Shown in pieces: positions 25,701-31,700 of a stretch of 64,000 nucleotides of DNA (position 1 is its first letter; each line of letters opens with the position of its first letter). Position numbers: made by a program. Source of the DNA: an uncultured Methanoregulaceae archaeon (GTDB taxonomy: Archaea; Halobacteriota; Methanomicrobia; Methanomicrobiales; Methanospirillaceae); NCBI GenBank assembly GCA_963701095.1, contig OY969564.1:1952001-2016000 (forward strand). The letters are read 5' to 3'.

Positions 25701-28700
25701 GATGAAATTGAACCGATATATTATGGCATTAAACTTTCAATCATCACCAGTCGGATGGATACCTATTTCAGGTTCCGGAAACTTGCGACAGGGAAGAATA
25801 TCCCTCTTCAGGCTCTTCTCCTGCTGGACTATTCTTTTGAAGTTATGAGCGGTAAACAGGCTGATGCAGTTGCATGCATGGACGAGATCAAAAAACGCTT
25901 TGGTCCCCAGCACTTTTTTGTCACGCTGTTAGAGTACGTTGCACACGATTTTCGTTCTGACGATTCAGGGAAAGTCAAACGATCCAAGAAGGCAATCTTC
26001 GACGCAATTGATCAGTACTGCATGAAGCTACTCAAAATTGAGGCATGAAAATGACGATAACAGGGATCCAGGATGACGCTCGGAGCAGCATAACCGGCAA
26101 ACTATTTGAGGAGAGTACTTTATGTCGACAGTGAATGTTCTTATCGCTTCTGGGGATACAGCAAGTGCTGATGAGCTCGGGACATGTGCAGAATCCGTAG
26201 GATTCCATGTAATGGAACGGGTAAATTCCGTGCAAGATGCCGTTATGTCTGTCGAGTCCCTGTATCCAGATATTGTCCTTATAGAGACGGTTCTTTTTGA
26301 GAAAAGGAAAACACCGGAAATTTTAAAAGAGATCCAAATCGTGGGCAATATTCCTGTGATCCTGATTACCGATGCAGATGAGGATATCCCAGAAATCTTC
26401 CTTGAATCAAATCGTCCTTATGGCGTTCTTGTCCGGCCGTTTGGACCAATTCTATTCAAACACGTCATTGAGGAAGCAATACACCGGCACTCGCTCGAAA
26501 GAGGGGAAAACGACCGGAGAAAAAGGATGCATTCTGGTGCTATCGTAAGAAAAGTAGCCCATGATATCAACAATTCTCTGAGCTCTGCGCTTGCGAATAT
26601 CCAGCTCGCCCGCAGGTCATGTACCCTTGAGAAAAATCAGTGCAGGCATCTGGATGATGCCGAGAATGGCATCCTGCGGGCACGGGATCAGTCCCGTCAA
26701 CTACTCATGCCTTCAGTTGTCCCCAAGGATAAAGCCGGAATAGCTCGAAAGGTGTCGACCCATGAAAATCGACGGCAAAATACAGCCCGTAATAAAGTAA
26801 GTACCGCCGGAAAATACCGGATACTCCTCATGGATGACGAAGATGCAATACTATCAGCCACTAGCGAAATGCTCTCGTTTCTGGGTCATATTGTGACAAT
26901 TGCCAAGACGGGAGAGGAAGCAATTGCATTGTTCCGAAAAGCAAAAGACAATGCCCTGCCGTTTGATGCAGTCATTCTTGATATAACAGTACCTGGTGGG
27001 ATGGGTGCAGAGGAAACATTACCCCGGTTGAGGGAGATTGAACCCGGAGTGCGGGCGATTATTTCCAGCGGCTATGCCACTCACCCGTTATTGATCAGTT
27101 TCGCAGCCAATGGATTTTCTGCAGCTCTCATCAAACCGTACGGATTTAAAGAACTCGAGGAATCTCTAGGACTGGTATCTGGTTTAATAGGGTTATAACC
27201 GGATTTCCTGGGGGTTCGTCGCTGATGAACCTTTTTGGGTTGCTACAATCAGGTTCTTTTCATCAAAAAAAAGGCCGACCCCCTCACGTGCGCTTGCCAG
27301 TGCACGATCAGGTGTGTTGTTTATCTCGCTCAGGTGTGAGAGTATAACCTGGGATACATCTTTTCCCCAGTTTCGAAGCACTGCGGCAGTTGCGATGTTT
27401 GAGAGATGCCCCCGGCTTGAACGAATACGTTTTTTCAGGGATTCGGGATATGGTCCGTTGGCAAGCATTTCCGGACAATGGTTGCTTTCAAGAACCACAC
27501 CATCGCAGCACCGGAGCAATTCAAGCATGTGTGTTGTAACTATACCTGTGTCGGTGCAATACCCTAGCGTTTGTCCGTTATCCTGTATTATAAACCCGCA
27601 GGGTTCAGCGGCATCGTGGGAGGTTGCAAATGGTAAAATCAAAAATCCCCCGGCAGTAAACGAAAGGGTATAGCGGCAGGTATGAACCTGGATCGGTTTA
27701 TTTGAAGTACGCCGATGATTTAAAAATTCATTAAGCGTACCCCCGGTTCCATAGACAGGGCAGGCAAGCTTTCGTGCGAGAACATCCAAACCTCGAATAT
27801 GATCCGTGTGTTCGTGGGTTACTATGATTGCATCTATTGAATCAGCTTGGCAACCCGTTTGTGTCATACGAGACAATGTCTCTTTCGCACTAAGACCAGA
27901 ATCAATTAAAATGGCACCATTACTGCCAGCGATATACGTGCAGTTGCCTTTGCTCCCGCTTGCAAGTATCGTGCATCGCATGTCTTACTATATTGGGTAT
28001 TTGTTGTATTAACCTGCTTTCCTCCCGACAACTGGAGTAGAAAAAGAGGATTGTATTATTGTTTAGCCTTTAGTGCTTCGTACTCTGCAAGTACCGGCGC
28101 AATTGTCTTTGTGGAAATAGAGCGACGGACAAGGACGGTTAGCTTGCGGCAATACCGGATATGGGCAATCTGGAAACTTACAATCAGGCCAAAACAGAGG
28201 CAGGTGATACCGATTAGGAAATAGCTTGGAGTGTCAACCATACAAATCCCCTCAGGTCTCCCTTTCGAGTTCATTAACGAGAGGGACTACAGAATCGGCA
28301 TCTGAACACTCTTTTGCGAGAATGAAAAAACGTTTCGAGTAATGCACTGTGAGCAGCTGATACCCGAGAACCATTCCGATAGCAAACATGACAATCCCAA
28401 AACAAATGTAGATAAGTAGATCCGTAACCAGGTCAGCCATAGTAAACCTCATTGACTGTTACGGTGGGATGCTGATATATTTTGTGAATTTTGTGGCTCA
28501 CATTTGTCCAAAAGATAAGAAAACCGGATCTGCAGAAAAGTCGTGTATTCTTGTAAAAGTGGTTTAATATAAAATCACTCGGGAAGACAATATTTTCTTT
28601 CTAACTCCACATTTTTCTTTGAGTCTAAGTAATGCAACATTGTTCTCTGGCCTTTTCTCAAGTAATAAATACGGGCATATGTATAGTGCTCACATGTCAC

Positions 28701-31700
28701 GTAATGTCCTTACATTACCCTCTCCAAAACAAACCTGATCAAAGACATTTGACTACCCAAAAGAGTAGAAAAAAGTGGTTTTTAACTGCTCTTTTATTAT
28801 TTGCTATCGTGGCAGTAGCATGTGGTTTAGCACTTGCTCTTCAACCACACTCACAAAATTCCGGTGCCGGAAATCTTGATCAGGGAATTACAATATTTTG
28901 GCCTTACCATGTCCTCCTCATGGCAATAGGATTCATCCTTCTGGTTACCGGTTTTATTGTCGCACGGTTTCATAAAACCAGGTCCTGGTATAAATCTCAT
29001 ATGACCCTGGAAGTATGTGGTGTGACATGTATTATTGCCGGTATTTTTGTAGGTATATATATGGTCATGCTTTCTGGTTTCCCTCAGTTGCATAATATCC
29101 ATGAAATGCTGGGGATCACGACGGGAATTTTGGTTATTACTGCAATTATTCTAGGATATTGTATCAAACGTGCTACTATATCGAAAAAAATTGTTCGGCA
29201 AAGCCATCGTTGGCTTGGTCGGATTGTAATCTGTCTTATGATCATCACCATTGTCTTTGGAATAATCTTCCTGCTTCCTCTTTTGGGGCGATAATTCAAT
29301 TTTTTTTAGTATCCTTATGCGGAGCTTTTCTCACTAAACAATGAGAAGATAAATAGTATCCCACGTATCAAAAAAAGTCCGGAATCAGCGATCATTTTCA
29401 GACATAGTTGAAATAGTCTGTTTCCTAAAGGAAATCTGCACAACCATTAAGATGCTTTCCGGATCAGTATTGGCTGAGAAGTTTTATGGTAAGGCTTACT
29501 GATGCAATCAAAGAATCCCTTGCAGCTACGAAGATCGTTTTCTTTGCTACCGCCTCAAGAAACAATGTACCCAATGCTGTCCCGATTGGGGCATTCAAAA
29601 TTGTCGACGATGAAACGCTTCTGATCTCTGATCAGTATTTCAATAAAACGTTAGCAAATATAAAGGAGAACCCGAATGTGGCCATTTCCTACTGGGGAGA
29701 GAAAGGAGGTTACCAGATCAAAGGGACGGTGACTCTCCATACAAGTGATGAGATCTTCAGGCAGGATGTAGCATGGATGAAAGAGTTGCGCCCTCAGCTC
29801 GTCCCGAAATCGGCAGTTGTAATGAAGATTACCGGGGTCTACATTCTCAAACCAGGACCCGATGCCGGAAAAAAGATTATCTGATACACAAAATATTCTC
29901 TAAGTTTGTATAAATGTTTAACTTTTTCACAATGGTGTGTAGTGGCCCAATTTACACCCGTCTCCACCCGGTATCCGGTACTGATATCTCGAAATGTGCC
30001 CCCTCTCCGAATGTTCCTGTTTCCTTGATGGAGATGCCAGATATCCCGAGGATCTCACGCGCGAGAAAGAGGCCTTGTCCGGTATTTTTTCCATAGCCTG
30101 ATGCAAAAATCTTTTCTTTGTCAGAGTCTATAATACCTCGACCATCGTCGCTGCAGATTATAGTGAGTGTGGGGCTGTCCTGCCGAAGAGAGAAGGTGAC
30201 CACGGAAAGCTTCCCACCGTACCTGAGAGCGTTATCAATAAGGTTATAGAACACCTTTTCGAGCATCCCATCCGCAAAAACCTCCACTCCCTCATCCGGC
30301 ATAACGGCCAGCCGAACTGAACCCGGATGTACGGACATTGCAGCTTTGGAGACAACGTCATGAACGTTCTGCCACTGAGGGGCATGCACACCGATATTCT
30401 GGTAATCACGGGTGAAGGTGATCTGTTGCTGGATACGCCGGGTACTTTCTTTTATCTCTACGAGGAGTGCTGACGATTCAGGCTCGGAAATTTTTTGGAT
30501 GGCCATATCCTCAAGGCCTAAAAGCCCGGTGATCGTATTCAGGATGTCGTGACGTATAAGCTTACTAAGCATGTTTAATTTTTTGTTTGAGGATTGGAGT
30601 GCTTGGCTTAACCGCCTTTGTTCTGTTAGTGTATAATCGCGTTCCATCATCTCAAGAGCAAAGGAAATATCGTCAGTGAGCTCCTTTAACAATGCAAGTT
30701 CCCTGTCATTGAAGAAATTACACTCATTTGAGTAGAAGCGCATTGCGCCAACGGTAGTGTTTCCACAACAGAGGGGAAACGCCGCAGATGAGCGGTAGCC
30801 ACGTTTGGTGGCCTCTCCACGATACTTATACATCCGGGGATCGGACTGTATGTCATTGCAAACTATCGGAGAACATCCCCGGATAGCAGAACCGGTAAGT
30901 CCCATCCCCTGGGGCACATTATTAACGGTAATTGAAAGCAAACTCAGGTACCCTGCCTCATACCCGTAAGCGGCGACCGGGAGGACATCGTTTGTAGCGG
31001 GGTTTACCATACCTATCCAAGCCATCAGGAATTTCCCCTCTTCAACAGCTATTTTACAAGCCTCATCAAGCAGCGCCTGCCGATCCCTGATATGGATTAT
31101 TGCCCGGTTGGTTCGGGATATGACTGAATTCAACCGGTTGAGGTGGAAAATCGTATCAAGTGCACGTTTCTTTTCAACTGAACTCTTGATAGTGTGGATG
31201 AGCTCAGTAAACTGTGACCGGGAGTCACCACCTTTACGGATATAGTGGTCCGCGCCGCAGTTGAGGGCATCTATAACAATTTCCTCCCGCCCTCTCCCGG
31301 TGAATATAATAAAGGGAAGGGCCGGGTATTTAGTACGGATGATCCTTAAAAATGCCAACCCGTCCATTCCTGGCATCTGATAATCTGAGATGACAATATC
31401 GTACGTTGTCGTCTTGAGTTTATTAAGCCCCTGATCCGCTGATTCGGCAGTATCCACCTGAATATTCCCCGAACGTTCCAAAAACAGACTTTGCCACATC
31501 AAGCAATGCGGTGTCATCATCGACGTATAAAACTGAAATCATAAGAAACGGAGTTCCGTGAGAATGTGGGTTAGGAGTAATTTCAGTTATGTACACATAA
31601 CCGTTCCGGTGTCAGTATTATTTCAGCAACCTTGTAGTTCCCGGCATGCCAACCCGTTACCAAATATTAATCTATGAGGGTAAGGCGGGCATATTCCTGA

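Follow-up and report, generated by a model that had tools for sequence, protein, structure and literature searches.

The uncultured Methanoregulaceae archaeon of assembly GCA_963701095.1, a methanogen from peat soil whose group is held to be without cytochromes, carries a gene for a plant- and animal-like cytochrome b561, which is probably a di-haem transmembrane electron carrier (the haem being predicted). The gene lies in a stretch of 64,000 nucleotides of contig OY969564.1 (positions 1,952,001 to 2,016,000; the window). This molecular reading, already proposed in the first-pass annotation, is supported by sequence, conserved histidines and glycines, fold, topology, haem supply and co-occurrence with ahbB.

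The gene, its start and its putative promoter

The open reading frame as first delimited (28632..29294, plus strand, 220 residues) is present, but its start has probably to be moved to 28704, giving a protein of 196 residues. This is the length of the two closest homologues, the first residue of which matches M25 of the longer frame. Since the closest homologues begin at the M25 equivalent, and since the first 24 codons contain a promoter-like motif, 28704 is most likely the real start.

28632..28703, plus strand: in-frame upstream extension of the open reading frame, 24 codons, probably untranslated (homologue starts; motif inside)
28660..28675, plus strand: BRE/TATA-like motif AARNRATAAATAYSGG, conserved, putative promoter, some 30-45 nt upstream of ATG 28704
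28704..29294, plus strand: cytochrome b561-type gene including the stop codon, 196 residues (residues 25-220 of the 220-residue frame)
29300..29307, plus strand: run of eight T, terminator-like, 6 nt past the stop codon (read from the sequence)

In most close relatives, motifs of the AARNRATAAATAYSGG type precede the homologue by an equal distance, despite differing genomic contexts, and the extended pattern has a single occurrence in the 2.63-Mb genome, at the b561 gene. We infer that this BRE/TATA-like motif is the gene's own promoter. Archaeal transcription is terminated by oligo-T runs, and the eight T residues after the stop codon may serve as a terminator.

Family membership, fold and topology

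Computation shows the protein to be a member of the cytochrome b561 core family. The match to PF03188 (Cytochrom_B561) is recovered exactly as first stated (E 1.3e-9, residues 92-211, model positions 1-130 of 137), and its score of 38.8 bits is above the Pfam gathering threshold of 23. The b561 core is described in PMC10691727 as having four universally conserved histidines, carried singly by four consecutive transmembrane helices; here H93, H123, H157 and H192 lie on model helices 2-5. The invariance claimed earlier for these residues holds, as the first three are present in 25 of 25 homologues and H192 in 23, the other two being truncated. The same four are the only invariant or near-invariant histidines in sets of 149 and 146 more distant family members, and H157 is the sole fully invariant column among the 149. 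Small residues at H1+7 and H4+4 have been reported in 106 eukaryotic b561s (PMC10691727); the hallmark glycines are kept here, G100 (H1+7) being invariant and G196 (H4+4) conserved in at least 90% of the 25 homologues.

28758..28838, plus strand: helix 1, residues 43-69 (AF2 helix 19-45 in the 196-residue numbering), superposing on b561 TM1
28908..28910, plus strand: H93 (H1), helix 2, predicted outer face, invariant
28998..29000, plus strand: H123 (H2), helix 3, predicted cytoplasmic face, invariant in the 25, preceded by a K/R-rich loop
29100..29102, plus strand: H157 (H3), helix 4, predicted outer face
29205..29207, plus strand: H192 (H4), helix 5, predicted cytoplasmic face

The protein had been reported to lack any sequence match in the PDB. 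A profile built from 146 relatives nevertheless matches 4O6Y (Arabidopsis b561; E 3.8e-9) and 5ZLE (E 9.6e-7), all significant matches being b561 structures, and the columns of H93, H123, H157 and H192 align with H51, H84, H118 and H157 of 4O6Y (numbers counted from the alignment).

The five helices described earlier recur in the AF2 model, whose confidence, initially low (pLDDT 66), rises to pLDDT 87.2 and pTM 0.77 with a deeper alignment. Foldseek indeed returns no PDB match at E<=0.001 (best E 2.2e-3), but the fold match is clear, the top five all being b561 or Dcytb with query-normalised TM-scores of 0.62-0.67. In a Foldseek-independent search of 48,161 chains, 4O6Y_A ranks first (Z 17.5, rmsd 2.6 Å over 165 residues) and human Dcytb 5ZLG_A second (Z 16.3, rmsd 2.4 Å over 169 residues). 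Model residues 22-196 align with 4O6Y chain residues 10-185, and the model ends where TM5 of 4O6Y ends. Because the de novo four-helix bundle 6w6x reaches Z 15.2 in the same search, part of the structural score is that of a generic bundle.

Single-domain eukaryotic members have six transmembrane helices, and the shortfall pointed out earlier is real for helix 6, which is missing, but not for helices 1-5, which superpose on TM1-TM5. CYBDOM members likewise depart from the TM2-TM5 layout, according to PMC10691727; therefore, six helices define the classical subgroup and not the core family.

Lysine and arginine residues number six in the N-terminal tail, three in loop 2-3 and four in loop 4-5, whereas loops 1-2 and 3-4 have none (13 versus 0). 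By this positive-inside count, H1 and H3 are predicted to be non-cytoplasmic and H2 and H4 cytoplasmic; the computed topology is N-in, with one predicted histidine pair at each membrane face. Helix 1 would be either an N-in signal anchor or a cleavable signal peptide with an Ala-x-Ala-like end.

Haem supply

The haem-synthesis cluster placed by the first-pass annotation at contig 625-630 kb is found there in the order ahbC-ahbB-ahbA-ahbD-katG. Three frameshifts interrupt it in the assembly; short-read contigs correct all of them, restoring an AhbC of 394 aa and a KatG of 727 aa. The ahbABCD pathway is intact and the frameshifts are assembly errors. ahbC is also unbroken in the five b561-bearing relatives examined (5/5). 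Across the order, ahbB is present in 180 of 401 genomes; it occurs in 21 of the 22 with the close b561 type versus 136 of 339 b561-negative ones, kin among these not being independent.

ahbB is missing, on the other hand, from 17 of 39 genomes with a more distant b561 type, six of them 93-98% complete. This would suit a b561-like fold that is not an electron carrier, its histidines binding a metal, nothing redox-active, or a haem that serves in storage or sensing or is passed on to KatG. The near-equal score of the generic bundle and the isolation of the gene (see below) point the same way, as do the JGI names of two homologues, 'YozB DUF420' and 'heme A synthase', which are unrelated guesses. 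Such a role is nonetheless rather improbable: the four ligand histidines and both hallmark glycines are kept across hundreds of divergent relatives, the histidines align one-to-one with those of solved di-haem structures, and fusions to DOMON domains, found in 50 of 149 family representatives, suit an electron wire and not a store.

Distribution and selection

The label 'eukaryote-type' attached to the gene is no more than Pfam's name for the family: at E<=1e-3 there are matches in 398 cluster representatives of public genomes and metagenomes, and PF03188 is matched by 144 of the 149 family representatives. PF03188 cores are widespread in prokaryotes, and the novelty is smaller than claimed. 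The reading of a b561 in Methanomicrobiales stands, whereas the surprise was overstated, since the Methanoregula boonei homologue was already named and a table of 2010 (PMC3004389) lists ahb-type genes for M. boonei, Methanosphaerula and Methanoculleus. Databases already carry a label for the gene family; a literature search on Methanoregula, Methanomicrobiales and PF03188 found no paper on PF03188 proteins in methanogens.

Within the order, the family is commoner than the 24 of 407 genomes first counted, as the family profile finds it in 61 of 400 other genomes. It is patchy: in the genus, 22 of 102 genomes have the gene, and the profile detects none in the remaining 80 or in 160 genomes from four other families of the order. 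The outer domain of a sister subfamily is superoxide-reductase-like.

Besides the DOMON fusions, another extracytoplasmic domain is present in 32 of 176 relatives; it precedes the core in the 23 of those 32 that were aligned and in the model of L016. These domains of the relatives point to outward electron delivery.

The low GC content noted previously is evident (GC 0.398, GC3 0.347, the 2.5th percentile of 2132 genome ORFs), and would agree with a dispensable accessory gene, recently imported or decaying, without an important function here. The patchy presence within the genus and rapid divergence are in line with this: identity to the syntenic copy is 67% versus 79-95% for the eight flanking genes compared, and dN is 0.19 versus 0.02-0.13 for such genes, about three times faster than most neighbours. 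In addition, the syntenic copy of a related MAG (L003) has an in-frame TAA nonsense codon before helix 5, the truncated form representing 10 member sequences, and stops or splits occur in relatives G295, G385, G315, G031, G369, G297 and G390. Many broken copies, however, are in few-contig, low-completeness assemblies such as G000, in which errors split the frame of 19 of 109 genes. In the window, the frame is unbroken, and short-read contigs (runs X1-X3) hold all sampled words of 27900-29950. The dN/dS ratio is 0.25 against the syntenic copy (0.22-0.48 among the 12 most similar of 45 other relative pairs), indicating purifying selection, and the putative promoter is conserved across contexts. 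Gene GC is close to host GC in most relatives (0.50-0.55 versus 0.50-0.56), which argues against a recent import and for a gene long resident in the family. Dispensability is therefore quite improbable.

Neighbours and candidate partners

In about 18 contexts, the neighbours of b561 are unrelated housekeeping or regulatory genes, and neither a conserved partner gene or operon nor an adjoining hydrogenase, Hdr or Fdh gene was found in them. In the window, the following gene is a weak lead to a possible cytoplasmic partner.

29486..29884, plus strand: PNPOx-family (FMN-binding split-barrel) gene, 132 aa (PF01243, E 1.1e-19)

At locus L004, a second b561 copy in another context has a non-orthologous PNPOx gene (28% identity) just downstream, and the genome under study has only five PNPOx_N genes. 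None of 10 further loci has a PNPOx gene beside b561.

It is extremely improbable that the protein belongs to an energy-conserving electron chain, with a function like that of VhtC or HdrE in cytochrome-containing methanogens: although the genome would have no other recognisable membrane b-type cytochrome, PF02665, PF01292 and PF01654 having no match elsewhere in it, the protein has no hydrogenase, Hdr or Fdh neighbour in about 18 contexts and is not found in 80 of 102 genus genomes or in 160 genomes of four other families of the order, and characterised b561 haems are high-potential.

Comparison with known systems

Arabidopsis CYB561B (4O6Y/4O79/4O7G) and Dcytb (5ZLE/5ZLG) share with the present protein the one-His-per-helix core with H1 and H3 outside and H2 and H4 inside, the glycines at H1+7 and H4+4, a basic patch at the cytoplasmic face and superposable TM1-TM5. 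In contrast, TM6 is absent here, sequence identity is 15-18%, and the histidine spacing is 30/34/35 versus 33/34/39 in 4O6Y (counted from alignments). The eukaryotic outer-face motif around H3, of the SLHSW type, is not kept except for its His and Gly. The host here is an anaerobic archaeon, and to our knowledge ascorbate does not occur in archaea.

The homologue in Methanoregula boonei 6A8 (ABS56036.1/WP_083756196.1) is of the same subfamily and five-helix architecture, with 56% identity over 176 residues, but in another genomic context; its names, 'Cytochrome b561 / ferric reductase transmembrane' and 'cytochrome b561 domain-containing protein', are automatic annotation only. In CYBDOM proteins of plants and animals (DOMON plus b561), an extracytoplasmic domain receives electrons from the b561 core, and DOMON also occurs in prokaryotic relatives; the protein here lacks an extra domain, helices 1 and 2 being joined just by a conserved loop some 20 residues long (consensus GAGxFxQGIxVYWPYH).

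Escherichia coli CybB, a superoxide oxidase (PF01292; 5OC0), is also a small di-haem four-helix prokaryotic membrane protein, one that deals with oxygen radicals at the membrane. Assignment to the CybB/VhtC family (PF01292, prokaryotic cytochrome b561/Ni-hydrogenase cytochrome b) was rejected, since the score of 19.9 bits falls short of the cut-off of 30.1 and no stretch of the protein passes it; in the fold search 5OC0 comes 20th, with a Z of 11.1 that unrelated helical bundles would also be expected to give. In the ferric-reductase-domain superfamily (NOX, STEAP, MsrQ/YedZ), two stacked haems form a transmembrane wire fed by a cytoplasmic flavin, a logic that the PNPOx-like neighbour would mirror in two pieces. 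That superfamily has two helices with two histidines each, whereas a single conserved histidine lies on each of four helices here, and this assignment too was rejected; NOX5 and STEAP chains reach only Z 10-10.8. An HdrE/NarI-type energy-conserving cytochrome b (PF02665) was discarded, the family having no match in the genome and no HdrD or hydrogenase gene being a neighbour in about 18 contexts.

Proposed mechanism and significance

As a di-haem carrier, the protein would hold one haem b near the outer face by H93 and H157 and a second near the cytoplasmic face by H123 and H192. A cytoplasmic reductant would dock at the conserved basic patch (R112, K115, K121, K185/K186, R189 and R193), and single electrons would travel from it over both haems and leave for an acceptor on the outside of the membrane. 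The donor might be a flavoprotein, with the neighbouring PNPOx-like protein as one candidate, or else a low-potential thiol or cofactor; ascorbate, which is not known from archaea, would not qualify. The role is most likely accessory, the protein delivering electrons to external oxidants, to ferric or humic complexes or to some outer-face partner. Because the gene stands alone and is patchy, outward reduction, as oxidant defence or ferric/humic reduction, is more likely than energy conservation.

A more specific form, which is speculative and unlikely, is a two-piece outward conduit, in which a PNPOx-like flavoprotein charged by F420H2 or another methanogen reductant would feed the inner haem of b561 and, through its outer haem, Fe(III), humic quinones or oxygen radicals at the cell surface. 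If so, no transmembrane electron route would have been known before it in the 'cytochrome-free' Methanomicrobiales, and the sister subfamily, through its additional outer domain, would have this device built in. Such a conduit could account for the reduction of iron and humics by peat methanogens or for their survival of oxygen pulses.

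Membership of the b561 family

The protein encoded in the window agrees with the cytochrome b561 core in every sequence and fold feature tested, and departs only from the six-helix layout of classical single-domain b561 proteins. It matches Cytochrom_B561 (PF03188) at 38.8 bits against a Pfam cut-off of 23 (residues 92-211, model positions 1-130 of 137; numbering on the 220-codon frame), which bears out the family assignment of the first-pass annotation. The protein scores below the cut-off of PF01292, the prokaryotic 'b561' family, and is not a member of it; nor does it show the His pattern of NOX, STEAP or MsrQ proteins. 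The four histidines described earlier as invariant are confirmed: H93, H123 and H157 (H1 to H3) are invariant in 25 homologues, and H192 (H4) is absent from two truncated sequences only. An exhaustive search yields 398 cluster representatives at E<=1e-3, and the same four residues are the sole conserved histidines in alignments of 149 and 146 representatives. G100 (H1+7) and G196 (H4+4) are likewise conserved in the 25 homologues; the available text of a study of 106 eukaryotic b561s reports small residues at both positions, and places the non-cytoplasmic haem on H1/H3 and the cytoplasmic haem on H2/H4 (PMC10691727).

The earlier statement that the protein has no PDB sequence match holds for a single-sequence search only. 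With a profile of 146 relatives, all significant PDB matches are b561 proteins, namely Arabidopsis b561 (4O6Y, E 3.8e-9) and human Dcytb (5ZLE, E 9.6e-7), and the four His columns, counted along the profile alignment, fall on 4O6Y H51, H84, H118 and H157. The nearest ESM Atlas clusters are bacterial PF03188 proteins of 130-137 aa (scores 0.85-0.86; rated leads only). In a tree of 176 cores, built without organism labels, the protein nests among five-helix forms. To our knowledge, apparently no prokaryotic PF03188 member has been characterised.

Fold and predicted topology

AlphaFold2 with a deeper alignment predicts five helices and raises the model confidence from the previous pLDDT of 66 to 87.2 (pTM 0.77). 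The top five Foldseek matches in the PDB are all Arabidopsis b561 or human Dcytb (query-normalised TM-scores 0.62-0.67); the best E-value is 2.2e-3, and the observation that Foldseek gives no PDB match at E<=0.001 still stands. In a Foldseek-independent search of 48,161 chains, 4O6Y ranks first (Z 17.5, rmsd 2.6 Å over 165 residues, model 22-196 on chain 10-185) and 5ZLG, a second human Dcytb structure, ranks second (Z 16.3). Part of the Z score is generic, because a designed four-helix bundle reaches Z 15.2 in the same ranked list. Superposition on 4O6Y and 5ZLG places the N-terminal helix at TM1 of the eukaryotic fold, leaving TM6 as the only helix without a counterpart.

Lys and Arg residues cluster on one side of the predicted helices, with six in the N-tail, three in the 2-3 loop and four in the 4-5 loop, and the 1-2 and 3-4 loops have none. 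This distribution predicts an N-in topology with the b561 arrangement, H93 and H157 lying outside and H123 and H192 inside. An Ala-x-Ala-like stretch lies at the end of helix 1, and this helix might be a cleaved signal peptide.

Predicted gene start and promoter

Apart from this gene, PF03188 has no match in the 2,625,686-bp single-contig genome, which contains mcrA. The nearest syntenic relatives of this genome, all of them MAGs, bear the labels Methanoregula or Methanoregulaceae. The features of the locus are as follows (window coordinates).

28632..29294 (+): open frame of 220 codons, the b561 gene
28660-28675: BRE/TATA-like motif AARNRATAAATAYSGG, at the same upstream distance in most close relatives despite differing neighbours
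6 nt past the b561 stop codon: run of eight T

The first 24 codons of the frame are probably not translated. The start is placed at 28704 because the two nearest homologues (86% and 78% identity; 196 aa each) begin at the residue equivalent to M25, because the BRE/TATA-like motif is conserved, and because the extended promoter pattern is found at this gene and nowhere else in the genome. The gene appears to form a unit by itself. Within 28660-28695, a short inverted repeat, ATAC-N8-GTAT, lies just past the TATA-like box; as conservation here exceeds the needs of a basal promoter, the repeat may serve as an operator to which a regulator binds.

Divergent from b561 are two tiny overlapping genes (28056-28452, minus strand) encoding proteins of 72 and 66 aa with one hydrophobic helix each. 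They share 95% and 89% identity with their counterparts in syntenic relatives (dN/dS 0.04 and 0.09), and match no Pfam family above cut-off.

Neighbouring genes and other cytochromes

Synteny with the window is limited to two loci; at the others, the genes around b561 are unrelated (e.g., PGK, HypD, GDE and H+-PPase), and no operon partner common to the non-syntenic loci was found. In 3 of about 18 contexts, b561 has a PNPOx or flavin-reductase gene as neighbour, and these cases are leads only: a PNPOx-family flavoprotein gene directly downstream of b561 in the window's lineage, a non-orthologous PNPOx gene (28% identity) downstream of a second b561 copy in a related MAG, and a flavin-reductase-like gene adjoining b561 at another locus (L007). 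The window's genome has only five PNPOx_N genes, and no PNPOx gene was found beside b561 in ten further loci. Two isolated cases, noted at L045:2359-2613 (minus strand) and L039:5056-5745 (plus strand), are a rubredoxin gene downstream of b561 in one locus and a molybdopterin-oxidoreductase-domain gene 1.5 kb from b561 in one relative.

In this single-contig genome (86% complete by marker count), PF02665 (HdrE/NarI-type), PF01292 (VhtC-type) and PF01654 (bd-type) have no match. No multihaem c-type candidate was seen either: the only ORFs with three CXXCH motifs are two DnaJ proteins, and one further 91-aa ORF has two such motifs.

Haem supply

Methanomicrobiales are the textbook methanogens without cytochromes, and the only haem use known to us in this order is that of catalase-type enzymes. 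The first-pass annotation placed a haem pathway beside katG at 625-630 kb, and the cluster is indeed present there.

G000:C1:625088-630573 (= L002:4086-9590), in the window's own genome: ahbC-ahbB-ahbA-ahbD-katG cluster

In this assembly, ahbC lies in three frames (two frameshifts) and katG in two (one frameshift). Decay into pseudogenes is rejected on two lines of evidence. Compared with a short-read relative, 19 of 109 orthologue-like genes are frame-split in this genome, which fits 86% completeness on one contig. Moreover, short-read contigs of runs containing this DNA have an extra G, an extra C and a one-base deletion precisely where the three frames break, and the katG correction is seen also in a run of another study. 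The frameshifts are thus traced to assembly, and the pathway is intact; with the three corrections, ahbC encodes 394 aa and katG 727 aa. ahbC is in a single frame in all five b561-bearing relatives checked. Given the proportion of frame-split genes, gene calls in this genome need care. The radical-SAM members of the cluster score 315-345 bits, well below the NCBIfam equivalog cut-offs of 500-650, and are named here by best match and context.

The available text of a 2021 survey gives AhbABCD in 0 of 32 Methanomicrobiales (PMC8351635), and a 2010 table, as available, lists all four ahb genes in M. boonei, Methanosphaerula palustris and Methanoculleus marisnigri (PMC3004389). ahbB is far commoner in the order than the survey implies, occurring in 180 of 401 genomes (174 above the curated cut-off), and the capacity for haem synthesis seems common among these 'cytochrome-free' methanogens. 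Among genomes with the close b561 type, 21 of 22 have ahbB, the lone exception being 69% complete; among b561-negative genomes of the order, 136 of 339 have it. Of the 39 genomes that have the more distant b561 type, 17 are without ahbB, which speaks against a b561-ahb link. The link is only suggestive, because the relatives are not independent.

Distribution and selection

The family profile was run on 400 other genomes of the order and matches 61 of them. The window's own family accounts for 57 matches (220 genomes) and a second family for 4 (20 genomes), and the 160 genomes from four further families give none. Within the genus, 22 of 102 genomes match. The Pfam model matches 21 of 401 genomes of the phylum, including core-only forms of about 137 aa in another family.

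Comparison with the syntenic copy gives a dN/dS of 0.25 (dN 0.19, dS 0.76), the eight flanking genes give 0.04-0.27, and b561 of other relatives gives 0.22-0.48 in the 12 most similar of 45 pairs. The gene is under purifying selection, looser than that on its neighbours. The suspicion that it is a patchy, low-GC recent import is sound as to patchiness in the genus and composition (GC3 0.347, at the 2.5th percentile genome-wide). However, the GC of the gene tracks that of the host in most relatives, which argues for long residence in the family with local drift in the window's lineage.

The syntenic copy in a short-read MAG (G086:C3; L003:6001-6600) has an in-frame TAA just before helix 5, and the same MAG has a second, intact b561 elsewhere (L004). 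In the protein collection, this truncated form, of 171 aa, represents 10 member sequences. Other broken copies are mostly in long-read-like assemblies, where they may be errors.

Related fusions and probable direction of electron transfer

A DOMON domain is present in 50 of 149 relatives, and another extracytoplasmic domain in 32 of 176 family members, ahead of the core where examined. The presence of these domains points to electrons leaving the cell side, i.e., to an outward direction. We conclude that the window's protein is a predicted outward electron wire that stands alone and plays an accessory part.

The 32 of 176 members make up a second b561 subfamily, seen in sister genera, in which a signal anchor is followed by a seven-strand extracytoplasmic domain of about 100 aa and then by a four-helix b561 core.

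L016:1602-2501 (+): second-subfamily gene
L017:1861-2727 (-): second-subfamily gene, with a cupredoxin/CopC protein as neighbour

In the seven-strand domain, H73, H81, Q103, C130 and G134 are invariant in 23 sequences. Its model (pLDDT 80) has its best PDB fold matches in superoxide reductases (6GQ8, E 6.9e-4; 4BFF, E 9.1e-4), and the Desulfoferrodoxin Pfam model reaches only E 0.14-0.28. Unlike canonical superoxide reductases, which have a His after Cys-Asn, the domain is without this one ligand His. Most members have Ala-x-Ala and then a His after the anchor. The second-subfamily protein may act as a radical reductase at the outer face, fed through the membrane, or may hold a copper site; in the literature searched, no paper joining a b561 core with a superoxide-reductase-like outer domain in this sense was found.

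Novelty and significance

The novelty of such a protein in a 'cytochrome-free' methanogen is in part anticipated by database records. Databases list the M. boonei protein, from a complete genome of the same genus, under 'cytochrome b561 domain-containing protein [Methanoregula boonei]' and, in an older GenBank record, under 'Cytochrome b561 / ferric reductase transmembrane'; the domain itself had therefore been annotated before. No study of the PF03188 family in methanogens was found in the literature searched, subscription journals excepted, and PF03188 is not named among the profiles in the available methods text of a 2022 survey of methanogen b-type cytochromes (PMC9478090). New here are the correspondence of helices 1-5, the topology, the promoter and start, the ahb link, and the broader family in prokaryotes together with its fusions. 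Three things limit the impact: the gene is accessory and patchy, databases label it already, and it is unlikely to alter how energy conservation is viewed.

Methanoregulaceae are dominant among the methane producers in peat and wet soils, and methanogens have been reported to reduce Fe(III) and humic substances. If the reading is true, a membrane-spanning di-haem protein would give some Methanoregulaceae a route for electrons to the cell exterior, which bears on oxygen and radical tolerance, iron acquisition and methanogen Fe(III)/humic reduction. The question is directly testable, because the cultured type strain M. boonei 6A8 has an intact homologue and the haem pathway. Whatever reductant stands in for ascorbate would be new biochemistry.
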